Shown: positions 15,275 to 45,042, numbered from the stretch's first letter. The stretch: 45,690 nucleotides of DNA from Candidatus Hodarchaeota archaeon (GCA_029856365.1 JAHQWW010000023.1:1-45690); one strand, 5' to 3'. Translations and numbers: made by a program. Notes: generated by a model from the sequence alone, not told the origin.

Positions 15275-15525
15275 TTGTATTCTAATTTCCTTCGCATACC
15301 AAGAACTTTTTTATCTAAATACGATTCTATTAAACTGAGTGTATTGACAAAGACAAAAAGAAGGATCCTGATAAATTCGAACGGATGTTTGCTGCCCAAT
15401 ATCTTGCTAAATACAATTATTTAAAGAGTAAAAAGCATTTACAGAGAGCTATTATAGAGGATACTGATCCAGAAGTAGTTCATTGCATTCGTAAACTACT
15501 TGAAGATAGAGAAGTTATTTCTTAA
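15275..15525 (+). pseudogene. Probable remnant of a HEAT-repeat (PBS-lyase-like) gene, or a 46-aa small ORF from ATG 15385
   Basis: Frame ending TAA 15523-15525 reads KKDPDKFERMFAAQYLAKYNYLKSKKHLQRAIIEDTDPEVVHCIRKLLEDREVIS (two HEAT-like units). An in-frame stop lies at 15331-15333, and the upstream part (FLSKYDSIKL) is in another frame. Confidence 0.45.
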
Positions 15526-15558
15526 CGGGGTTGGCCAGAAATCTCTTTCCATCGGGTA

Positions 15559-16386
15559 TTACGAGAAATATTCTTTCAGATTTTCCCGAATATGAGAAAA
15601 TCTTTTGATTCCAAAACGCCATTGAAGTCTAAAACTTAACCATCTTTCAGGGATTCCTAGGAATAATTTTTTTTGTAGTTGCCTGAGTACGGAGAGATCT
15701 GAAATAGAGTTTGATATTGCTTGAATAGAAGGAAATTCAGATTCCTTTAGTTGAAATTGTTCGATTGGCTGTGAATGGGGTAATTCTTCAGATAAAAAAA
15801 CTAAAGAATATTTCTTCAAAGTTTTTTTATGATTAGGAGAAACCATTGTCTGGAAAGAAAATAACGGATTCAACGGGGGAGGTATTACACGATCAAGAGT
15901 TCCAAACATTTGAATAAGGTTCATTGGATCTATTTTATGTTGGCTTGTCAATTGGAGTTGCTTCTTACAGAAAATTAGTTCGATTAATTTTGAAGAAATA
16001 GGATAAGGATCCAGTGTTTCAAAATCGTTCAATGTTAGAATGTTATTATCTTCTATATTCATAGACCCATTTATTAATGGTGAGATAAAATATTGGACTG
16101 TTTTCTCATTATAAAAGGAATTATCAATGATTAATGTATGAGTTTTTATTGATTGACGTCCAAAGCGGTCAATTCCATCATCAAAAGTAAAGCGTAAGAC
16201 AACATTTCCAGAAGAATGTTGAAATTTAGTCAAGAAGACTTTATTAAAATCACAGCATTCTTCCTCTGGAATAAATAAAGAGATATTTTGGATTTGGCTT
16301 TGGTGTAATGTGGTAGCTACGACATCGAGTCCCATTTCAGGAGTGTTTCGAACAATTACTTGACGAATTTTCCCCATTCCAGTCAA
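15559..16386 (-). CDS. Hypothetical protein resembling GAP1-N2 + GAP1-M (DENN-like) domains
   Basis: QVIVRN..GLDVVATT; GNVVLRFTFDDGIDRFGRQSIKTHTLII; LIELIF..LQL..IPPPLNPLFSFQT; 14 bp downstream of a GTPase gene. Family call by eye. Confidence 0.6.
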   Translation of the reverse strand: MTGMGKIRQVIVRNTPEMGLDVVATTLHQSQIQNISLFIPEEECCDFNKVFLTKFQHSSGNVVLRFTFDDGIDRFGRQSIKTHTLIIDNSFYNEKTVQYFISPLINGSMNIEDNNILTLNDFETLDPYPISSKLIELIFCKKQLQLTSQHKIDPMNLIQMFGTLDRVIPPPLNPLFSFQTMVSPNHKKTLKKYSLVFLSEELPHSQPIEQFQLKESEFPSIQAISNSISDLSVLRQLQKKLFLGIPERWLSFRLQWRFGIKRFSHIRENLKEYFS

Positions 16387-21673: not shown

Positions 21674-21778
21674 TGGACCGAGTGGGATTTGGACCCACGA
21701 CCTCCTGCATTCAGGATTGATACTCAATAGAGCACAATTTGCCAAGCAGGCGCTACTACCAAGCTGAGCTATCGGCCC
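21674..21778 (-). tRNA. tRNA-Ala(GGC) with a 30-nt intron at 37/38 (intron 21710-21739); CCA not encoded
   Basis: Acceptor GGGCCGA/TCGGTCC+A with G3:U70 Ala identity pair; anticodon arm CCTGC-TTGGCA|T-GCAGG; T arm GTGGG-TCCAAAT-CCCAC; intron folds as a hairpin (ATTG/CAAT, TGCTC/GAGTA). Confidence 0.93.
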
Positions 21779-33472: not shown

Positions 33473-35413
33473 TTACCATCTCGAAAATCCTATACCACAG
33501 ATTTCAGAAACATATAATAGAAATAAGGCTATCTCTTCCATTTCTTGGTTATTATCGGAAGTTACAAAAACCACACCATCTCCATGTTTGAGAGGAGACA
33601 TTAAATGGGAGATAATTTCATTCTGAGCTTTTCCAAGAGTCCAAAGTTCCTCTTGTTCAACTTGGCTGCGAATTTCCATTTCTTTAATGAAGTTTCGAAA
33701 TTTCGTAGGGATTTTTTCTTTAATATATTCTCTTTTAGGGGGAATAATTAAGATTGAACCTTCTTTAGGAATCTCAAATATGCTCGAAAGTTTTTGTAAC
33801 TCCATTTCAACTTGTGTAAGATACTCTACAATGCTTAACCATAATAATGCTTTGATAGTCATCTGTTGTTTCTCAACAGGCCCTATTAGTGAAACATGAT
33901 TTTCTCTTAAGTGAGTTTCTCCTCCGATTCTGATTGAAAGATCCTCTAAAGAACCTCTCAAAGCAGATAAGCGATCAAGAACTGTGTAAATATGGATTAC
34001 AAAATGGCCATCCATTTCCCGAAAAAGCCTGATAGTAATGCTAGATTCTTGGAATGGTAAATTTTGAGTTTCTGGTATATTAATTTGGTAAGGGGCAGTA
34101 TCAAATATCAAAGGAATTGAATCAAAACGATATTCAAAACCACTTCTTCTTATTTCATCTAAACGTGCTAAAACATCACTATCAACAGGTTTTATTGGTA
34201 TGGTCTCGATAGGTTTGGTAATTATTCCTTGTATTTCTTCCGGAATTGCATCAGGTTCTGCTACTAACTCTAATGATGTGTCTAATTCAATTTCTTTTTG
34301 TTGAAATCTAGGGTGTGCTTCTTCAGATACTTTCATTGGAGATTCAATAGATAAGCTTTCAATATCAGCAGTAACAGTAGGAACTAAAGGTTCTTTGAGA
34401 ATAGGAGTCTTCTCCATTGCAGGGACCTTTTTAATAACAGTTGGACCCTTGGAAACAAGAGGTTTTTTAATAACAGGAACCTTTTCAACCATGGGAGTAG
34501 TAGAAGCTAATTCTCGGAGTTTTTGCATGAGAGGAGTTGACATTGTAACAATAATATCTCTACCAGGTTGAAGGACGGTTGACAATAGAATCTCTCTGCG
34601 AATAAAATCATCCTCAGACCGAGGAAGAAGAGAAATCGATTGAGCAATTTCTTGCGCCTCTTTGTTTGAAATAAATTCCCTCATTTTAGCTGCATTCGAT
34701 TGATTACCAAAAACACGACCAATGACGTCATAAATTCGCTCATCAGGATAAGCAGAAAAGTAAAACTTGTGGGGCGAGTCCATACCAAATAGAAGGACGT
34801 TTTTATTATCTTCCACTCCAAGAAGAGGTACAAAAGAAAGGATTCTATTGGTTTGAGATTTTTGAATGATGTCTTGAAGCTCTAATGGTTTATTAGGATC
34901 CACAAAATGTAAATTTGAGGCAATCCGCTGAATTCCAAGCTGCATATCGTGAGCAAAAGCAGTCAATATAACAAGAGCAGCTAGTATTCCTTCTGAAGAT
35001 CGTGGAACCACAAAAAGCGAATTTTCTGGTGAAGAAAGTATCTGGTAGAAACAATCTAATTGACTGTTTTTAGCATCTTCAATATTACCTTTTAAAAATT
35101 CCTCTAACATACGTAAAACAATACTCATAGCGGGGATGACTTGTCTAGCACTCCGTTCGATAGGAATTAAAACAATAGCAACTAATTGATAATCTTTTAT
35201 TTTCTGAGAGAACAAAAAAATCATGCGATGTTTTTCAAAACGAATGAAATGAATTTGTTCTCCTTTCATAATCCTTTCAGAAAATAGGGTGAGTACTTGA
35301 GTTACTGTTGCACTGATCTTTGAGTGCTTCGTTAGGAGTCCCTGACCAGAGCTAAAAACAATCCTGTTTTGGTGGATCACAAGAATGTCATTTGAAGTCT
35401 CTTGACTAAGCAT
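33473..35413 (-). CDS. Hypothetical protein: N-terminal longin-like domain, possible DENN-like alpha/beta region, low-complexity linker, C-terminal domain
   Basis: Longin-like pattern DILVIHQ-RIVFS...VLTLFSERIMKGEQIHFIRFEKHRMIF..LVAIVLI; P/K/E-rich middle. Fold call by eye. Confidence 0.6.
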   Translation of the reverse strand: MLSQETSNDILVIHQNRIVFSSGQGLLTKHSKISATVTQVLTLFSERIMKGEQIHFIRFEKHRMIFLFSQKIKDYQLVAIVLIPIERSARQVIPAMSIVLRMLEEFLKGNIEDAKNSQLDCFYQILSSPENSLFVVPRSSEGILAALVILTAFAHDMQLGIQRIASNLHFVDPNKPLELQDIIQKSQTNRILSFVPLLGVEDNKNVLLFGMDSPHKFYFSAYPDERIYDVIGRVFGNQSNAAKMREFISNKEAQEIAQSISLLPRSEDDFIRREILLSTVLQPGRDIIVTMSTPLMQKLRELASTTPMVEKVPVIKKPLVSKGPTVIKKVPAMEKTPILKEPLVPTVTADIESLSIESPMKVSEEAHPRFQQKEIELDTSLELVAEPDAIPEEIQGIITKPIETIPIKPVDSDVLARLDEIRRSGFEYRFDSIPLIFDTAPYQINIPETQNLPFQESSITIRLFREMDGHFVIHIYTVLDRLSALRGSLEDLSIRIGGETHLRENHVSLIGPVEKQQMTIKALLWLSIVEYLTQVEMELQKLSSIFEIPKEGSILIIPPKREYIKEKIPTKFRNFIKEMEIRSQVEQEELWTLGKAQNEIISHLMSPLKHGDGVVFVTSDNNQEMEEIALFLLYVSEICGIGFSRW

Positions 35414-35461
35414 ACTTATCCATTCTTTCTTCCTTATGATATTATTATTAAAGTTTCAGAT

Positions 35462-36097
35462 TCACAATATACTTCCCAAAATAGTCTTAATATCAATATT
35501 TCCTTTCCGAAGAAGAATGGGATTCAATGGATCAGTAAGATCAACCACGGTAGAAGGGGGGTTCTCTGGTAATCTTCCTGCATCTATCCAAAGGTCGATT
35601 TCATCTGAAGGTAGTTCGTGAAAAACTGATGGAAGATCGTATTTCGGTTTTGAACCTGATCTATTAGCAGAGGTTCCAATGATTGGAATATTAACTTTTT
35701 CAATAATTTTTAACAGTATCTTATGTTTAGGAACACGAAACGCAATTTTTTGTGGATCTTTCATGTTTAGAAATGAAGATAATGTCTGAGAAGCCCGAGA
35801 ATCACAATTTAAAACTGCTGTGAGCCCACCAGGCCAAACTTTTGATAATAACTTTTGAGTTCCTGCTGATATCTCTGTATATTCTGACACCATAGTTTTT
35901 GTGATAAGAAGACTGAGTGGATTATCAAGGTGTCTTGATTTGATATCATATATTCGTTTAATGTTTCTATCATTCCACCTTAATCCAACCGTTCCTAACC
36001 CGTAACTCGTGTCCGTTGGGAAAACAATAATTGATCCCTTTTGAAACTCTCTCATGGCGATTGAAATAACATTTGGATTCGTTATAGAGATTCTCAC
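35462..36097 (-). CDS. tsaC: L-threonylcarbamoyladenylate synthase, short TsaC/YrdC form
   Basis: FPTDTSYGL, IYDIKSR, WPGGLT, AFRVP, GTSANRSG, PSTVVD; no C-terminal SUA5 domain. Confidence 0.92.
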   Translation of the reverse strand: MRISITNPNVISIAMREFQKGSIIVFPTDTSYGLGTVGLRWNDRNIKRIYDIKSRHLDNPLSLLITKTMVSEYTEISAGTQKLLSKVWPGGLTAVLNCDSRASQTLSSFLNMKDPQKIAFRVPKHKILLKIIEKVNIPIIGTSANRSGSKPKYDLPSVFHELPSDEIDLWIDAGRLPENPPSTVVDLTDPLNPILLRKGNIDIKTILGSIL

Positions 36098-36230
36098 AGG
36101 GTTGATTTCTCCTTGATGAATGGCATAGATAACATAAAGAAAGGAAGGAGCTTGCTTAAGGAAAAAATAGAAAAACGAGACAACATCATTGTTGTTCTAG
36201 TTATTTTAAGAGAGATATAATTATCTTTCA

Positions 36231-36983
36231 TCAACTTTGTTGCTTCATCATCTGAATAATAATTTCACGAATTAGACTTTCAACAGATTTGATAACACGG
36301 GTAACACTTAACGGTCTAACTTCTTTTTTTAACCTTCCATTCGCATCTACAATCATACTTCGGTCACTTTTTGAGAGAAGTGCTTTTAAATCATCCCTCG
36401 CTTCCAGGCATGACACTTCAACTATTCTAACGGCTGCATCTCGAAGACTCGTTGTAACTCCTGATTCACTTAATAATTTTCCTACTTCTAGTGATGAAAT
36501 TCGTTGTTCCCTAGGAAGGTCCATCTTATTTAGCATAATGTGATAAGGTAATGCGCCACTAGCTAGTTTATCACCAGCAAGAGTATTGATTTCCTGTAAA
36601 GAGAATTTATTTTCTTCCCATCGAGATTTTTCAGAGTCAACAACGACAATTAAACCATGTGCCCCACGTAGAACGACTTTTCGTTGCCCAGCATGTCGTT
36701 CTTGACCAGGAACAGTAAAGAGATGGTATTTCAGTATTGGCAATCCAGCTGCGGTTTTTCCTACGCCAAAAATCGCCTGATCGAAAAACAACGTCCGACC
36801 TGTGGGATCTTCTAATTTTAAAAATTTATAGACATTCTCAGGATCTTCAAGACTCTTTAATACTTTTGTAATAGTGAGTGCAGTAGTTTTCCCTGCAAGT
36901 GTAGGCCCCCAGAAAACTATTTTGACTACTGGAACCCCTTGATGGTCTCTCTTTATGACTTCAAAGTTAGAATTTGCCTGCAT
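36231..36983 (-). CDS. MglA-family small GTPase
   Basis: KIVFWGPTLAGKTT, GRTLFFD, HLFTVPGQ (MglA-type G3 TxxG), VLRGAHGLIVVVDS, NKMD. Confidence 0.88.
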   Translation of the reverse strand: MQANSNFEVIKRDHQGVPVVKIVFWGPTLAGKTTALTITKVLKSLEDPENVYKFLKLEDPTGRTLFFDQAIFGVGKTAAGLPILKYHLFTVPGQERHAGQRKVVLRGAHGLIVVVDSEKSRWEENKFSLQEINTLAGDKLASGALPYHIMLNKMDLPREQRISSLEVGKLLSESGVTTSLRDAAVRIVEVSCLEARDDLKALLSKSDRSMIVDANGRLKKEVRPLSVTRVIKSVESLIREIIIQMMKQQS

Positions 36984-37021
36984 TGTTCATCCCTGCGATT
37001 TTCATTTGTTGTAAATGACAA

Positions 37022-37558
37022 TTAAGTGTTATTTGGTTGTTTCTGTTGTAAAACATGCCTCGTTAAACCAACAAATATTTCCTGAATCTCTTCTCCGCCT
37101 AATTTAGCAGAAGTTTCATAATAAGTCATGTTGTAGGTTTTAGCCAATGTGTTAGCTTCATCGGTAGATATTTGGCGTTCATCTTCTTTATCTTTCTTAT
37201 TTCCAGCCAAAGCTATCGGAACCGAAGCGTCAGGAATGTGTTTCCGAAATTCCGCCAACCAATCAGGAATAGCTACAAATGATGTTCTTTCGTCTAAAGC
37301 AAACATGATAAGGCAAGCAGAAGCACCTCGATAATAACTTGGTCGTAATTTGCCAAAAAACTCTTGGCCCGCTGTATCAACAAGGATTAACTTGACATTA
37401 TTGCCATCTATTTGGATTGTTTTGGTTGTAATGTCCACTCCGAGTGTAGGTAAATAGTTCGTTGTAAACTTTCCTTCTGCAAATCTCCTTATGAGTGAGG
37501 TTTTTCCTACACTACCTGATCCGATGGCGCAAATTTTGAGTAAATATTCGTCGGGCAC
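37022..37558 (-). CDS. Rab-like small GTPase
   Basis: GSGSVGKT, YLPTLGVD, DTAGQE, YYRGA, GNKKD, ETSAK; GTG start. Confidence 0.94.
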   Translation of the reverse strand: MPDEYLLKICAIGSGSVGKTSLIRRFAEGKFTTNYLPTLGVDITTKTIQIDGNNVKLILVDTAGQEFFGKLRPSYYRGASACLIMFALDERTSFVAIPDWLAEFRKHIPDASVPIALAGNKKDKEDERQISTDEANTLAKTYNMTYYETSAKLGGEEIQEIFVGLTRHVLQQKQPNNT

Positions 37559-37580
37559 TTTAGGTTCTCCAAATAATCAG

Positions 37581-38483
37581 TTAAATTCCCATCTTCGATA
37601 AATCTTGGAGAGATTTTCGCATGTCCTCAATGAATTCTTCTCTCTCTGAGCGTGTCTTTTTCCTAAGAAGTTCAGTAAATATTACCCTTCCATCTTCAAT
37701 AAAAAGTCTAACTTGATAATCTGATGCGGGAAAAATTCCCGAGGGGAGGTCATCCATCGGCTCCAATTTTACAACATCTTTAGAAAAAAGAGCTAAATGC
37801 TCTTTAATTACGGAAAAGACCAAGTTGCCTATAATGATGATTTCACGCTCCATATTATCAGGCATTTCTAGATCCTTAAGTTTTGTAGATACTTCTTCTA
37901 GAGTAGTTGGTGTGATAGTCTTAATGGGTGCTGTAACTACTACTTCAGTTTCTTTCACAACTTTTGGTGCCGGAGCTGGTTTTGGAGCTGGTGTGGGGGT
38001 TGATACAGGGGTTGATGCTCGAGCCGGGGCTGGTGCAGGGGTTGGTGTGCGAGCTGGTGTGGGGGTTGGTGTGCGAGCTGGCATGGGGGTCGATGTGCGA
38101 GCTGGTGCACGAGCTGGTGCGGGGGCTGGTTTTGGAGCTGATATTTCTGGTACTGAGGTTGTAGGTGCTGCTACTTCTCTTTCCTCGGGTTTTGCACCAA
38201 ATATTGCAAGGAAATCAGCCCCTTCCAATCCTGGATCAAGGCTTTCTATTCGATAGACCATTCCATACTTTTCTTGCCGCATTTGTTGTGCTGCTTTTGC
38301 TGATATGAATTTTCTCCTTACAGGTGCTTTCTCACCTTTCCAAATGAATATTTTACGCGAATCTTCATCAACAATAATGAAAACATTGTCATCAGCAAGA
38401 TCTGCCATCGAAGAAAGAGATGCGGGAGTTAAAGTGCCATCATCTTCTACAGACCATTTTTTAATATATTCAGAATCACTCAA
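37581..38483 (-). CDS. Single-domain gelsolin-like protein with Pro/Thr/Ala-rich linker and C-terminal domain (Asgard 1DGelX-like)
   Basis: DDNVFIIVDEDSRKIFIWKGEKAPVRRKFISAKAAQQM...FLAIF is a gelsolin repeat; PARTPTPT linker; globular C-terminus. Confidence 0.85.
   Translation of the reverse strand: MSDSEYIKKWSVEDDGTLTPASLSSMADLADDNVFIIVDEDSRKIFIWKGEKAPVRRKFISAKAAQQMRQEKYGMVYRIESLDPGLEGADFLAIFGAKPEEREVAAPTTSVPEISAPKPAPAPARAPARTSTPMPARTPTPTPARTPTPAPAPARASTPVSTPTPAPKPAPAPKVVKETEVVVTAPIKTITPTTLEEVSTKLKDLEMPDNMEREIIIIGNLVFSVIKEHLALFSKDVVKLEPMDDLPSGIFPASDYQVRLFIEDGRVIFTELLRKKTRSEREEFIEDMRKSLQDLSKMGI
37964..38140 (-). repeat. Imperfect coding tandem repeats (~24-bp unit, PARTPTPx)
   Basis: GGGGTTGGTGTGCGAGCTGGTGTG-like unit repeated about three times, flanked by APKPAPAP copies. 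Confidence 0.85.
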
Positions 38484-38527
38484 GGTATATCAACACTCTG
38501 TACCAATTACGATTTTATAAAGCTTGA

Positions 38528-38601
38528 TAGTTCATGCTAGTTAAATATGTTGTTATAATTGTTATAATTGCTAGTTCTTGCTAGTTAAATATGTTGTTAT
38601 A
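38528..38601. repeat. Two 30-bp direct repeats (period 44 bp, 1 mismatch) in a divergent intergenic region
   Basis: TAGTTCATGCTAGTTAAATATGTTGTTATA (38528-38557) and TAGTTCTTGCTAGTTAAATATGTTGTTATA (38572-38601). Confidence 0.88.
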
Positions 38602-38741
38602 TTTATTATAATCTGGTGGCACACAACCAAAACTCAAAAATAAGTATCTATTCATTTTTTGGAAGCAATCTTTTTTTAAAATTACTCAAGGTTTTAAAAT
38701 TCACTAAGCTCATTAAAATCTAAAACTATAGGAGAATAAAA

Positions 38742-39572
38742 ATGATAAAAGATCCTTGGTTGGAAAGAGGATTGGTTGAACTCCAGCAAAGTCACTGGTT
38801 TGATGGTTTTCAAATGTTGCAAGGAGCTATTCGAAGAGCATTTCGCTATGGTGATCCTGATCGTGCTAAAATGGTAATTTCTAAGGCTATACCTCTTTTT
38901 GCTTCAGGAAATCAGGCAAAATTGGCTTGTGATCTAGTACTTGCTCTTATAATGGGTATCAGTCGAAAAATAAACGAAAGAGTATATGTTGAATTAATCC
39001 CAATTACATTAGTAAATTTAAGATTAGCTTCTCTTGAAAATTGCGTTCAGACTGTCTGTAATCAGATAATAATAGAAAAGGTTTTTCAGAGGTCAGAATT
39101 CCTTTCACACTTACATGATTTAATTCTTGAAGCTAATTTCAATCCTAATGTAGTTTCTGATCTCTATTTTTGTTATGCAGGATTATTATGTAACAAAAAG
39201 GATTTTGTAGCATGCTTTGAAACCTTATACTCTTGGAGTCAAGAATCTTCATTTCTCTCCCCAAAAATGAGAGCATATTTGACCCTGGCTGAAATTAATG
39301 CTTATGAAATAGAAGATTGTGGGAAGTATCTTCAAATGGGAGAGACAGTAGTTTTGTCAGAATCCGACACAGATAGTTATCTTGAAATTGCAAATAGAAT
39401 ATTCGGCGCAGTACAAACATCAGATAATTCTGAATTCTATTCTACAATAGCTGATTACTCTGATTTGATTAATGCCAAAAAAGATGGGTTATTAAAAGCA
39501 TTATGTGATGGAATCTCTGAAATTTTGAATAATAAATCCAGTTCTGGACTTTTGTCATTGTTTAAATCCTAA
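38742..39572 (+). CDS. Alpha-solenoid protein resembling eukaryotic Get4/TRC35 (alternatively a SNAP/TPR-like solenoid)
   Basis: WFDGFQM..IRR..RA..LFASGNQAKLACDL at the N-terminus; DLYFCYAGLLCNKKDF in the middle; YLEIANRIFGAVQTSDNSEFYSTIADY..D..CDGI..SSSGLL at the C-terminus; AGGAG RBS. Confidence 0.6.
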   Translation: MIKDPWLERGLVELQQSHWFDGFQMLQGAIRRAFRYGDPDRAKMVISKAIPLFASGNQAKLACDLVLALIMGISRKINERVYVELIPITLVNLRLASLENCVQTVCNQIIIEKVFQRSEFLSHLHDLILEANFNPNVVSDLYFCYAGLLCNKKDFVACFETLYSWSQESSFLSPKMRAYLTLAEINAYEIEDCGKYLQMGETVVLSESDTDSYLEIANRIFGAVQTSDNSEFYSTIADYSDLINAKKDGLLKALCDGISEILNNKSSSGLLSLFKS

Positions 39573-40660: not shown

Positions 40661-41215
40661 TTATTTTGCTTGCATCAAAAATATACGGATATTATGAGCC
40701 AATTCATTGAAGGATTCATCAACATTTTCACCTGTTTTAGCTGAAGTCTCCAAGTAGGGAATGTTACAATTGAATTGGAATTTTTTCTTGAGGTCTTCAG
40801 CGAATTCCAGAGCTTCATCTTTAGTGACGCAATCATCCTCTTCCTCTCTTAAATCCACTTTATTTCCTAAGACAGCGACGGGCATTGCTCCTCGGCCAGA
40901 GTTTTTGAATAGCTCTTCGATCCAGGCGTTTAAATTGTCGAAAGAATCTCGTCGAGTAATATCAAATACTAATAATCCTCCATGGGAGCCTTTGTAATAA
41001 AGTTCTCTGACACTATTGAATCGTGGTTGTCCTGCAAGATCCCAGATTTGAAATTTAACGTCTTTTTCCCCTTCTTCCGTCATTATTCTTGTTTTTTTTA
41101 CAGCAAAGTCTGCGCCAATCGTCATCACGTACCCACTAGAAAATTGTTTGCCTAAATACCGCTCACGTAAAGCAGTTTTTCCCACTGCTCCGTCACCTAG
41201 CAAACAAACTTTCAT
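40661..41215 (-). CDS. Rab-like small GTPase
   Basis: GDGAVGKT, YVMTIGADF, IWDLAGQPRF, YYKG, GNKVD, ETSAKTGENV. Confidence 0.94.
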   Translation of the reverse strand: MKVCLLGDGAVGKTALRERYLGKQFSSGYVMTIGADFAVKKTRIMTEEGEKDVKFQIWDLAGQPRFNSVRELYYKGSHGGLLVFDITRRDSFDNLNAWIEELFKNSGRGAMPVAVLGNKVDLREEEDDCVTKDEALEFAEDLKKKFQFNCNIPYLETSAKTGENVDESFNELAHNIRIFLMQAK

Positions 41216-41937: not shown

Positions 41938-44220
41938 ATGGTCGGACTGAAGATATCTTCAGAAGAAATCAAGGAAATTATCCCAATACTTGGGTTAACC
42001 GATGATGATCAAGGGAAAGTCTATTTAAGTCTGCTTTCTTTTGGGATGGCAACTCTAGGCCAGATTAGTTTGCTTTCAGGATTAGATTATATAAAAACAC
42101 AAGAAGCTCTCCATATTTTAGTAGGTAGTAAACTTGCAAAAAGAATTCCAGGAAAAGTTGGACGATATGTAGCCTTGGAACCATTTTTAAAAGCTTTTTT
42201 TCTCGCCTATGATCCAATCACTCTGGTTAACATCCGTAAAGAAGCTTCAGGTGCTTTTCAGATTCAAGTGAAGCAAATTGCTGATATTTTTACTGAAGCA
42301 ATAGAGGCTTTTCAAAAACATACAGCGGGACTAGAAAATGACTTCTCACAAGGTTTAGATCCAATTAAACTGAACTTAGACAAGCATACTGATAATTTTC
42401 GCCAAATAATCGAATCTTCCGAAAAAAATATGCTAATTAATATCGGAGAACTTAAGAACGAGACTCAGCTGTTAATAAAGCAAACAAAAAAACTTAATGA
42501 AGAAATTACTAAAGTTAATCTTGAAAAAATAAAGACTATCCCTGACATTCTCGATCCTTACACTCCCAAAGTTACACAGAAATTAAAAACAACAACTAAT
42601 ATAATTGATAAAGATCTTGAAAGACTTAGGATGGACAGTAAGACTAACCTTGAATTATTAAGAACCAATATTGATGAGGAAATAACAGAATATTCAGAGG
42701 AAATCGAGGGAATTCTTGATCAATTTGAAACTAATCGTTCTGAAGAGCAAAATAATTTCGATAGAAAAATTGGAAAAGTAAGTTTACTGTTAGACAATCT
42801 TCGGTCAAATGCGATTCAAAAAAAGTCTAAATTCCTTGAAATTAGACAAGGATACAAAGATATTGATGAAGTGGTGAAGGATCTATTTACTGAAATCGTT
42901 AACCGACTTAATAATATGGAATCATCATTAGCTAACTCAATAAATGATATACAGAGTAGAAAATTATTCAAAGGAAAGGATGAATTCATTTCTAACCTGA
43001 TACGATTAGATGGAGACAGAAAAGCGATTCAACAAATTTTTAAAGAAAATTTAATGATATTGGAAAAGGTTGCTAGTTTGAATAGTACTTTGAATGAAAC
43101 AGAGAACGTTATTGTTCAAGCAACTGAGACTGGTTTGACCGAAGTGCAGAAAATATTAGATGAAGAGGTTCAGCTCCTTTCACACGACTTGCAAGATATT
43201 AAACTTAAGATTGGCACTGATTTTAGAAATTTGATCCAAGTCTATCTAAACAAAAGAAAAAAAGATATAAAAGCAAAAATAGGGGATGTAGAAACTGTAT
43301 TTGATCAAAAAATTAACGACTTTAATGAACAGGTGGATAAAATTACTGATAAATTCTCTAATGAAATTTCGAATTTAATTCAACATACTGCTGAAGAGTT
43401 TGAGGTTAATCTGGAATCCTATTTTAAGAATGTAGAAACCTTCGATGTAAGTATAAACACTTTTAATGACATTTTAAATAAAACTGACGAGCTAGGCGAA
43501 CAATCTAGCAATAAATTAAAAATTATATTAGATCAGATCACTGATCTTGAAAGAACTTTTAGTTTATTCATCTCTGGAATGAATACTATCGTAACAAGTT
43601 TTGCAGATGCTCAATTGGAAAATTTTAGTTCCACATTGGATAAAACTGATGAAATTATAAATACTCGGGTTGTTAAAATTGAACAGCAACTCGAACAAGA
43701 GATATCTGCTTTAACGTTTTCTATAAAAGAAATGAAACAAAAGCTTGACAAAATTACTGAACTGTCCAGATTGGTTGGTATTTCGGAAGTTGAATCTTCG
43801 TTACTTTCCAGTGACTTAGTTGTTGGAGAAACAGCTATAATAATGATGCTAAGAGACTTAACATTACGTGCTAAATCCTCTTTGACGATTTTGATGCCTC
43901 GTCCAGAACTTCAGACATTAATGGTAGCCTCTAAATTACCAATGAAGACTCGAGTGATTATCATTGGTGATTTTACCAAGGTTCCTGAGTCAACACTAAA
44001 GAAAATCTTATCTTCAGCTAATCTTAGATTAAAACAATTAGATACTATAGATTTCTGGGGGTGTATTCGTGATGCAGAGGAGCTATTGGTTTGTCCAGAG
44101 CCCAAACATCCCGACAAAGAAGGACTCATTGGGGTAATTACCACAAACGAAAACCTTGTTGAGCTGTTTTCGCAAGAACTAATGACTTATACGACACGTA
44201 GTCGTGAAATTCTGTTCTAG
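41938..44220 (+). CDS. TrmB-like wHTH + ~520-aa coiled-coil/helical rod + C-terminal PLD-like (TrmB-C) domain
   Basis: LGLTDDDQGKVYLSLL..ATLGQISLLSGL...RYVALEP (TrmB-type wHTH); long heptad region; GETAI..LRDLTLRAKSSLTILMP...CIRDAEELLV...GVITTNENLV without an HxK motif. Confidence 0.72.
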   Translation: MVGLKISSEEIKEIIPILGLTDDDQGKVYLSLLSFGMATLGQISLLSGLDYIKTQEALHILVGSKLAKRIPGKVGRYVALEPFLKAFFLAYDPITLVNIRKEASGAFQIQVKQIADIFTEAIEAFQKHTAGLENDFSQGLDPIKLNLDKHTDNFRQIIESSEKNMLINIGELKNETQLLIKQTKKLNEEITKVNLEKIKTIPDILDPYTPKVTQKLKTTTNIIDKDLERLRMDSKTNLELLRTNIDEEITEYSEEIEGILDQFETNRSEEQNNFDRKIGKVSLLLDNLRSNAIQKKSKFLEIRQGYKDIDEVVKDLFTEIVNRLNNMESSLANSINDIQSRKLFKGKDEFISNLIRLDGDRKAIQQIFKENLMILEKVASLNSTLNETENVIVQATETGLTEVQKILDEEVQLLSHDLQDIKLKIGTDFRNLIQVYLNKRKKDIKAKIGDVETVFDQKINDFNEQVDKITDKFSNEISNLIQHTAEEFEVNLESYFKNVETFDVSINTFNDILNKTDELGEQSSNKLKIILDQITDLERTFSLFISGMNTIVTSFADAQLENFSSTLDKTDEIINTRVVKIEQQLEQEISALTFSIKEMKQKLDKITELSRLVGISEVESSLLSSDLVVGETAIIMMLRDLTLRAKSSLTILMPRPELQTLMVASKLPMKTRVIIIGDFTKVPESTLKKILSSANLRLKQLDTIDFWGCIRDAEELLVCPEPKHPDKEGLIGVITTNENLVELFSQELMTYTTRSREILF

Positions 44221-44271: not shown

Positions 44272-45042
44272 CTAAAGCTTTTTACGGGTTGCAGCAAAAA
44301 TTGATTGTTTTAATGTTTGATCATCTGTAGGTATACGCTTAGTCATCAGAATTTCGATATCACCATTTCTAACAAGAAAATCAACACGTCCAGCAGAATA
44401 TTCTATAGAATAATGATTATCCTTTTGGGTAATATACACATCACCTGTTTTTGTAAGGGCAATTATAAAACGACCTGCAATACTTTCAGCATCATCAGCA
44501 ATGTCTTCTGTTCTTTCTATTGTTTCATCAGATAAAGGTTCTTGATAAATTTCTTGTTTAATTTCTGGCTGTGTGGAGAGTGTAGTGTCAGAAACTGATG
44601 ATTCTTGAGTCAAAAAGGAAGAAACATATTCTGGTTCATAAGTCAAAAAGGAAGGAACGTATTCTGGCTCTGTTTCCTCCTCCATGATTTGATTGGGAGT
44701 CTCAACAACGGTAATGGGTCTTTCTAACGAGTATTTATGTCCTTCTTGAAGGAGAACATCAGGAATAACCTCTTCCTTAATGATTTCAACTTCAAATCCC
44801 ATACCGATTCTTATTTGCCTTTTAGGAATTATAAAACCACTTTTGGCGATAGATTGAACACGACGCTCTATTATTTTTTTGGTAACTAATGAAAAATGCC
44901 GAGGGATTTGGACGGTTATTTTCTCGGTGTTTTCATCAATAACTAATACAGCTTCATCCTCTGAATGGCGAATTTTAGTGTCAGAAACAGTAAAATCATC
45001 AGTTCTCCAGATACAAGTGAGTACAATGTTCCTTTCACTCAT
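44272..45042 (-). CDS. Hypothetical protein with a degenerate gelsolin-like N-terminal domain and acidic linker
   Basis: EAVLVIDENTEKITVQIPRHFSLVTKKIIERRVQSIAK parallels NVFIIVDEDSRKIFIWKGEKAPVRRKFISAKAAQQMRQ of the 37581 gene. Confidence 0.55.
   Translation of the reverse strand: MSERNIVLTCIWRTDDFTVSDTKIRHSEDEAVLVIDENTEKITVQIPRHFSLVTKKIIERRVQSIAKSGFIIPKRQIRIGMGFEVEIIKEEVIPDVLLQEGHKYSLERPITVVETPNQIMEEETEPEYVPSFLTYEPEYVSSFLTQESSVSDTTLSTQPEIKQEIYQEPLSDETIERTEDIADDAESIAGRFIIALTKTGDVYITQKDNHYSIEYSAGRVDFLVRNGDIEILMTKRIPTDDQTLKQSIFAATRKKL
44608..44670 (-). repeat. 33-bp-period coding duplication (EPEYVPSFLT / EPEYVSSFLT)
   Basis: AGTCAAAAAGGAAGAAACATATTCTGGTTC (44608-44637) and AGTCAAAAAGGAAGGAACGTATTCTGGCTC (44641-44670). 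Confidence 0.85.

Follow-up and report, generated by a model that had tools for sequence, protein, structure and literature searches.

Introduction

Asgard archaea move and reshape with an actin cytoskeleton. The locus described here, in which a gene for a putative actin regulator stands beside genes for two small GTPases, raises the question of whether these genes belong together and how much of the gene row takes part in the association. It lies in a stretch of 45,690 nucleotides from Candidatus Hodarchaeota archaeon (GCA_029856365.1 JAHQWW010000023.1:1-45690), called the window below, which is contig C171 of a 4.24-Mb assembly with a completeness of 84%. An ORF (open reading frame) read of the window gives five co-oriented ORFs on the minus strand, with inter-gene gaps of 22, 38, 133 and 48 nt. 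An earlier note on this DNA had proposed a cytoskeleton-GTPase signaling operon; its orientation and spacing of the five genes agree exactly with the ORF coordinates, and its naming of the first three as gelsolin, Rab-like and MglA genes is borne out by profile, fold and PDB matches.

Gene 1, gel (37581-38483), encodes a GelX-type gelsolin of 300 amino acids (aa), assigned to subfamily GelX-B from profiles, predicted structure and a tree. Gene 2, rab (37022-37558), encodes a Rab-like small GTPase of 178 aa (Pfam, PDB matches, subfamily tree), and gene 3, mglA (36231-36983), an MglA-family GTPase of 250 aa (Pfam, PDB matches, motifs). Genes 4 and 5 are designated tsaC and p646. Gene order supports a link between GelX and a small-GTPase system; a five-gene signaling operon is not supported. 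The reading preferred here, with a probability of roughly 0.5, is that of a layered locus: an old pair of GelX-B and a Rab-like GTPase of one subfamily, to which Hodarchaeales made additions, and through which GTPases would control an actin activity.

Conservation of the GelX-GTPase association

The profile of the C-terminal 'X' domain of GelX matches 363 of 399 Asgard genomes. At all 20 loci inspected from 11 other Asgard families the match is an ORF of ~250-340 aa with a gelsolin domain and an X domain. At 18 of the 20 loci the gene directly after this form, GelX-A, is a co-oriented Roadblock/LC7 gene (~130 aa, Pfam 8e-12); a Rab- or MglA-like gene is adjacent to GelX at none of them. Roadblock is a GTPase-regulator fold.

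Heimdallarchaeia other than Hodarchaeales carry two paralogues, GelX-A (~300 aa) and GelX-B (~210-270 aa). Their GelX-A has an adjacent Roadblock gene in 5 of 11 loci. Their GelX-B has a Rab-like gene within 1.2 kb in 23 of 24 loci, spanning seven genera of families f3, f4 and f5, and the two genes are immediately adjacent in 22. In most of these pairs the two genes converge and overlap by 4 nt; some pairs are co-directional, and a single one is divergent. Only gel and rab, out of 17 window genes, recur at these loci; the other 15 do not. Within Hodarchaeales, gel-rab is kept at every locus that is uninterrupted by a contig end or scaffold gap.

The trees agree with the gene order. In the GelX tree, the Hodarchaeales gel proteins join Heimdall GelX-B (support 97/88). 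A Rab tree took in 33 Ras paralogues of this genome; here the window rab shares a clade (support 92/96) with each of the five GelX-B-adjacent Rabs that were tested. The clade also holds Hodarchaeales orthologues and four of the genome's own paralogues, the remaining 29 falling outside it.

Unlike adjacency in a single genome, this conservation across lineages exceeds chance. On the evidence of gene order and predicted folds, a family of actin regulators has a real and persistent link to small-GTPase machinery in these genomes. A functional tie is argued because the same pair persists over families and orientations, and because GelX-A pairs with Roadblock; this parallel suggests that GelX proteins in general have small-GTPase machinery as their working partner. 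A literature search found no published report of a gelsolin-Roadblock or gelsolin-Rab neighborhood.

Three observations concern single genomes. GelX-A was not found in the genome of the window. At G000:C190:5745-6179 (L109) this genome has the orthologue of GelX-A's Roadblock neighbor from other Asgard lineages (146 bits to the family profile), with no GelX gene beside it. A genome of the same genus with 9% contamination (G019) has a second, shorter GelX-like ORF of 234 aa (L108:754-1458), and the 5.5 kb inspected there contain neither a Rab nor a Roadblock gene.

Proposed mechanism and inherited gene order

The preferred reading of a layered locus would work as follows. At its core would be a GelX gelsolin beside a dedicated Rab-like GTPase of one subfamily, kept across Heimdallarchaeia. 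In Hodarchaeales the pair, now co-directional, would be followed by an MglA-family GTPase and form with it one unit, gel-rab-mglA; a protein with a longin domain and a degenerate DHH/DHHA1 part is encoded nearby, with tsaC intervening in family f1 only. The GTP-bound Rab-like protein would bind GelX, probably via the X domain, and this binding would place or switch the severing or capping activity of GelX. The MglA-like GTPase would add a second, polarity-type switch, possibly with the longin domain of p646 acting in the manner of MglB.

A more specific version is put forward tentatively. The X domain may be a docking module for small-GTPase machinery, taking Roadblock in GelX-A and the Rab-like protein in GelX-B; GelX would then be an effector that places actin severing, to which Hodarchaeales added an MglA-type switch. 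If true, no earlier instance of an actin regulator controlled by a small GTPase would be known from prokaryotes, and such control would predate eukaryotes.

It is rather unlikely, on the other hand, that the neighborhood was simply inherited without function, GelX acting on actin independently in a lineage with slow rearrangement and dozens of GTPase genes. This alternative is in keeping with the state of the genus, where a block of ~20 kb that includes housekeeping genes, among them those for NAD (nicotinamide adenine dinucleotide) and diphthamide, is equally collinear; conservation within the genus is therefore not discriminating. Several further points weigh against the preferred reading of a layered, functional locus. 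At least 58 Ras-superfamily matches were counted in the genome, so a gelsolin-GTPase adjacency in this genome taken singly is unremarkable, and GTPase-rich genomes in general raise the rate of chance adjacency. The four other gelsolin loci of the genome that were found by Pfam have no GTPase within ~7 kb. Most GelX-B-Rab pairs outside Hodarchaeales are convergent and therefore not co-transcribed, and many of these loci, all of a single genus (g8), are not independent. An approximately unbiased (AU) test (p 0.25) leaves standing a tree in which the Hodarchaeales gel proteins group with GelX-A. For the X domain, neither a fold match nor homology to Roadblock is recognizable, and its likeness to that of the published Thor 1DGelX is one of description. 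Tran et al. (PMC10933270) noted for MK-D1 that its GTPase genes do not, as a rule, share operons with Roadblock or longin genes. The evidence for linkage is gene order throughout.

What inheritance without function explains poorly is the selectivity of the conservation. Between Hodarchaeales and the other Heimdall families, gel and rab alone of the 17 genes stay together; the pair outlasts three orientations; the adjacent Rabs all belong to one subfamily; and the sister form GelX-A stands with Roadblock in distant Asgard lineages.

The persistent pairing names the proteins to test with GelX: Roadblock in most Asgard archaea, one Rab-like subfamily in Heimdallarchaeia and, as an addition, the MglA-type GTPase in Hodarchaeales. 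It gives a lead, unproven but testable, that GTPase switches controlled actin before eukaryotes arose. Actin-based motility has been reported in a cultured Hodarchaeales strain (PMC13716822, a 2026 Nature paper), and because such a strain (M. peptidophilum HC1) exists, GTPase control of actin before eukaryotes can be tested directly.

Gene order and transcription in Hodarchaeales

The order gel-rab-mglA-tsaC-p646 is found at 15 loci of the genus and on one more distant contig. Within the genus, identity to the window protein is 81-97% for mglA, the most conserved gene of the cluster, 70-90% for rab, 56-90% for gel, 50-81% for p646 and 42-84% for tsaC. The triplet gel-rab-mglA is limited to Hodarchaeales, where it occurs in family f1 and in one of two f2 genomes. 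In that f2 genome (G022) the genes after the triplet are an unknown ORF and one for an S8 protease; the p646 homologue comes next, at a distance of 3.7 kb, and tsaC is absent from the cluster. The second f2 genome (G023) keeps gel-rab, followed by genes on the opposite strand; it has mglA on a separate small contig and its p646 homologue beside the gene for ribosomal protein S12. The gene p646 is thus order-specific and loosely linked. The triplet also seemed to be missing from one genome, G015, but a scaffold gap of 100 N lies at the exact site, so that the apparent loss carries no weight.

In the other Heimdall families, where the best MglA homologues reach 40-48% identity, homologues of gel, rab and p646 are missing from the surroundings of these genes. 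Outside Hodarchaeales a distinct MglA neighborhood was seen at L033:5326-8747, at L034:7965-11376 and at six further loci in families f3, f5 and f6. There an NERD/Mrr-like gene (~230 aa) and a gene for a coiled-coil protein (~590 aa), the latter with weak matches to the crescentin rod, come after a 250-aa MglA-type gene in the same orientation.

Upstream of gel, an intergenic region of 25% GC (38484-38741, minus strand) is common to gel and a divergent gene at 38742, and appears to have a promoter role. Within it, a TATA-like TTTATAAAA precedes the TTG start of gel by ~35 nt. The 17-mer AACATATTTAACTAGCA is present there in two exact copies (38535-38551 and 38579-38595, minus strand), 44 nt apart; none of 100 shuffles reached two copies. 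The paired copies between gel and the gene at 38742 may serve as a binding site for a regulator. The gaps of 22 and 38 nt contain the Shine-Dalgarno-like motifs GGAG and AGGGA. Since the gel-rab and rab-mglA gaps are too short for a promoter, gel-rab-mglA is read as most likely one transcription unit. In orthologous f1 loci the two gaps measure 0-29 and 4-78 nt, and in G022 29 and 134 nt. The gap after mglA (36098-36230, minus strand) is T-rich, with TTTTTCTATTTTTT as part of it; at 9 of 17 measurable genus loci, the window included, it has T-runs of 5-7. The gap is likely the terminator-like end of the gel-rab-mglA unit, and tsaC and p646 would be transcribed separately or by read-through. 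A scan for sigma-70 promoters and intrinsic terminators gave counts equal to those in shuffled sequences; such a scan is not meaningful for an archaeon.

TsaC and the 646-aa protein

Gene 4, tsaC (35462-36097, minus strand), encodes a TsaC/Sua5-type L-threonylcarbamoyladenylate synthase of 211 aa, which passes the equivalog model TIGR00057 with 144.9 bits against a cut-off of 123.2. It is the sole stand-alone PF01300 gene of the genome, the other PF01300 match sitting inside an 820-aa ORF. For this reason, and because of its absence from the f2 cluster and the T-rich gap that precedes it, tsaC is regarded as a housekeeping tRNA-modification passenger, unrelated to the other genes.

Gene 5, p646 (33473-35413, minus strand), encodes a Hodarchaeales-specific protein of 646 aa, characterized from a structure model and fold searches. 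It belongs to no Pfam family and has no Pfam DHH or DHHA1 match at E-values up to 0.1. Its relatives amount to 32 representatives among 1.84 billion proteins, and with the window p646 as query homologues were found in families f1 and f2 only. The model has a predicted local distance difference test score (pLDDT) of 77.7. At the N-terminus (residues 1-110; 35084-35413) the order of strands and helices, bbabbba, is that of a longin domain. This domain matches zeta-COP (Z 8.6; TM, the template modeling score, 0.64 in Atlas), sigma-adaptins (Z 8.1-8.2), MglB (Z 7.9, root-mean-square deviation (rmsd) 2.7 over 97 residues) and the group of Mon1, Ccz1 and Fuzzy (Z 7.1-7.5). The protein as a whole is a candidate GTPase-binding partner.

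The following lobe (residues 112-309; 34487-35080) is DHH-like by its match to GAN/RecJ 5ghr_C (Z 8.5, rmsd 4.6 Å over 178 residues). A disordered insert (residues 306-406, from the model) precedes a DHHA1-like lobe (residues 410-537; 33803-34186; TM 0.71, rmsd 3.0 Å over 125 residues in Atlas). The C-terminus is a small alpha/beta domain (residues 551-646; 33476-33763) with a match to the kinase domain of T4 polynucleotide kinase (PNK; Z 8.1). Taken together, the model gives moderate support for a two-lobed DHH and DHHA1 fold; the Z values are only intermediate, which makes every domain assignment except longin and DHHA1 tentative. Neither a DxD motif nor a DHH triad is found among the conserved columns. 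The position of motif I reads PRSSEG, and a remnant, GGETH, stands in place of GGGH; p646 is probably not a canonical DHH/DHHA1 enzyme.

A paralogue of p646 with 565 aa and ~45% identity over the first 300 residues is found at G000:C22:2917-4614 (L026); no GTPase gene was detected within the 13.8 kb examined around it. A second p646 copy is present in most genomes of the genus.

The earlier note had taken all five genes as one operon, tsaC included, with the last protein as a longin/DENN-like factor. That the last protein is a guanine nucleotide exchange factor (GEF) for the Rab in such an operon is improbable. Co-orientation, short gaps and an order kept throughout family f1 fit a five-gene operon, and the N-terminal longin fold of p646 resembles uDENN and the tri-longin GEFs Mon1, Ccz1 and Fuzzy. 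The f2 cluster, on the other side, has a protease gene and an ORF in place of tsaC, the p646 homologue of G023 stands beside the ribosomal protein gene, and the T-rich gap closes the unit after mglA. With the full-length p646 model, no DENN chain was among the best 50 rows of either VIA search, nor among the Foldseek or Atlas matches listed; the middle and C-terminal parts match DHH/DHHA1 instead. The identification of p646 as a DENN protein was set aside on these grounds. The claims of the earlier note are accordingly to be narrowed. Membership of tsaC falls away. For the fifth gene the longin-type fold stands, while the DENN label is not reproduced; its linkage holds as an order-specific trait, but is broken in one f2 genome. 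Synteny across Heimdallarchaeia and Hodarchaeales holds class-wide for gel-rab, whereas the linkage of mglA is confined to Hodarchaeales. The proposed two-GTPase actin module keeps the tight gel-rab-mglA arrangement, the conserved gel-rab pair and the parallel of GelX-A with Roadblock, and loses tsaC, DENN and a wide linkage of mglA.

The GelX protein

The identity of gel as a gelsolin is weak by Pfam, where the match is borderline (E-value 1.3e-3, 19 bits against a cut-off of 21), and firm by family profile and fold. The family profile matches Thor ProGel (7c2f_B) at 5.2e-14 and the Thor, Heimdall and Loki 2DGels at 1e-9 to 1e-13. The AlphaFold model has a confident N-domain, a disordered linker and a compact C-domain. 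The N-domain is the gelsolin-homology domain (residues 6-96; 38196-38468, minus strand; pLDDT ~90); its superposition on actin-bound Thor ProGel 7c2f gave Z 16.3 and an rmsd of 1.2 Å over 88 of 88 residues (VIA). The linker (residues ~100-190; 37914-38186, minus strand) is rich in Pro, Thr and Ala, has a pLDDT below 50 and consists of weakly conserved alignment columns; in the family it is variable in length and predicted to be disordered. The X domain (residues ~195-297; 37593-37901, minus strand) is defined by the model and the family profile, and its modeled topology is helix, five strands, helix. It belongs to no Pfam family. With the full-length model as query, where the gelsolin domain fills the match lists, the only fold match of the X domain was a weak one to Cache (Z 5.0), and a profile-profile comparison with Roadblock gave a probability of 1%. 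A feature search of a protein atlas with the X domain returned scores of ~0.8 to Asgard clusters and was uninformative.

The genome contains eight gelsolin-N-like ORFs according to a genome-wide ORF profile search, and the X domain occurs in the window gene only. Close relatives of gel carry the labels Hodarchaeales, Hodarchaeota or Heimdallarchaeota metagenome-assembled genomes (MAGs), which places the organism in Hodarchaeales. On profile and model evidence, gel is assigned to the GelX/1DGelX type, with a true gelsolin domain. It shares with the Asgard GelX/1DGelX proteins (Thor 1DGelX; L. ossiferum B35_GelX) the N-terminal gelsolin domain, the disordered linker, the C-terminal X domain and the overall length of ~300 aa. 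It differs from them in that the published X domain is predicted to be coiled coil or disordered, whereas that of gel is modeled as a compact fold, and in belonging to the Heimdallarchaeia-specific GelX-B branch, with its gene beside a Rab-like gene rather than a Roadblock gene. The L. ossiferum GelX was described in a study in which gelsolins were co-precipitated with Lokiactin (bioRxiv 10.1101/2025.11.30.690169).

In the family alignment Arg56 is invariant and Arg57 nearly so, both where the long helix begins. Sec23 provides an arginine finger to Sar1 from its gelsolin-like domain. A GelX that acts, like Sec23, on the neighboring GTPase as a regulator or effector unrelated to actin would fit these arginines, but is highly improbable, as the N-domain is much nearer to actin-binding gelsolin-family domains (VIA scores mostly Z 12-16, range 9-16) than to the gelsolin-like domains of Sec23/24 (Z 6.3-9.6 only), and Thor 1DGelX binds rabbit actin (dissociation constant ~8 µM) and cuts filaments in vitro without calcium (PMC7444086).

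A 256-aa protein at 44272-45042 had been described in the earlier note as a cryptic second gelsolin. In the genome-wide ORF search it has no match to the GelX N- or X-domain profile at E-values up to 1e-3. Three loci of family f31 have weak homologues of this protein at a distance of ~4 kb from GelX.

The two GTPases

The rab product matches Pfam Ras at 3.7e-49. Its best PDB relatives are Rab23, Rab43, Rab27 and Rab30 (~1e-34), and Thor Rab is matched at 2e-30. It carries DTAGQE, with the catalytic Gln present. There is no prenylation Cys at its C-terminus, the tail ending in ...LQQKQPNNT, and the protein is called 'Rab-like' because of this missing motif.

The PDB sequence matches of mglA are MglA proteins exclusively (1e-19 to 3e-16). 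Its motifs TVPGQ and GRTLFFD align with TVPGQ and DRTLFFD of Myxococcus xanthus MglA; Thr replaces Asp in G3 (TxxGQ), and the switch-I arginine is aligned with that of MglA. These two features are shared with the MglA-MglB switch of Myxococcus and Thermus. The window mglA differs from that system in having a C-terminal extension of ~80 residues and no adjacent Roadblock (MglB) gene: no Roadblock match was found in the window, and the ten Roadblock matches of the genome are on other contigs. The N-terminus of p646 is the only roadblock/longin-superfamily domain near mglA.

At G000:C91:52568-54415 (L042) a short MglA paralogue (~195 aa) has Roadblock/LC7 genes on both sides. This Roadblock-MglA-Roadblock layout is canonical MglA-MglB-like, and the same is found in family f7 (L027, L045).

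A second Ras-family GTPase of the window (40661-41215) lies near a protein with a TrmB helix-turn-helix (HTH) and a coiled coil (41938-44220), and this neighborhood is conserved within the genus. A rearranged version is present in the f2 genome G022, where a GTPase 60% identical (L022:14569-15135) adjoins a shorter TrmB-like ORF (15297-16310). The two may be another conserved pair of GTPase and partner.

Related systems

In L. ossiferum, an ARF-type GTPase and gelsolins co-precipitate with Lokiactin (PMC13716822). The logic proposed for the layered locus, a GTPase switch coupled to an actin-remodeling protein, is that of eukaryotic actin control by Rho, Rac and Arf; the window GTPases are Rab-like and MglA-like, not of the Rho family, and their coupling to gelsolin is read from gene order only.

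According to Liu et al. (bioRxiv 10.1101/2020.10.19.343400), most eukaryotic signature genes of Asgard archaea lie outside conserved neighborhoods, and according to published surveys gene order seldom allows Asgard GTPases to be assigned to partners. The same authors describe an operon of a Roadblock (LAMTOR1-like), a Rab-like and a DENN gene, which resembles the window in joining a Rab-like GTPase with the Roadblock/longin superfold. That operon has DENN and no gelsolin, whereas the window has a gelsolin and a longin-DHH/DHHA1-like protein. A gelsolin neighborhood is not mentioned in the main text of that study.

Other features of the window

At 21674-21778 on the minus strand, Rfam reports a tRNA with 47 bits and a span of 105 nt, at a site where ARAGORN finds no tRNA. 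It is probably an intron-containing archaeal tRNA gene.

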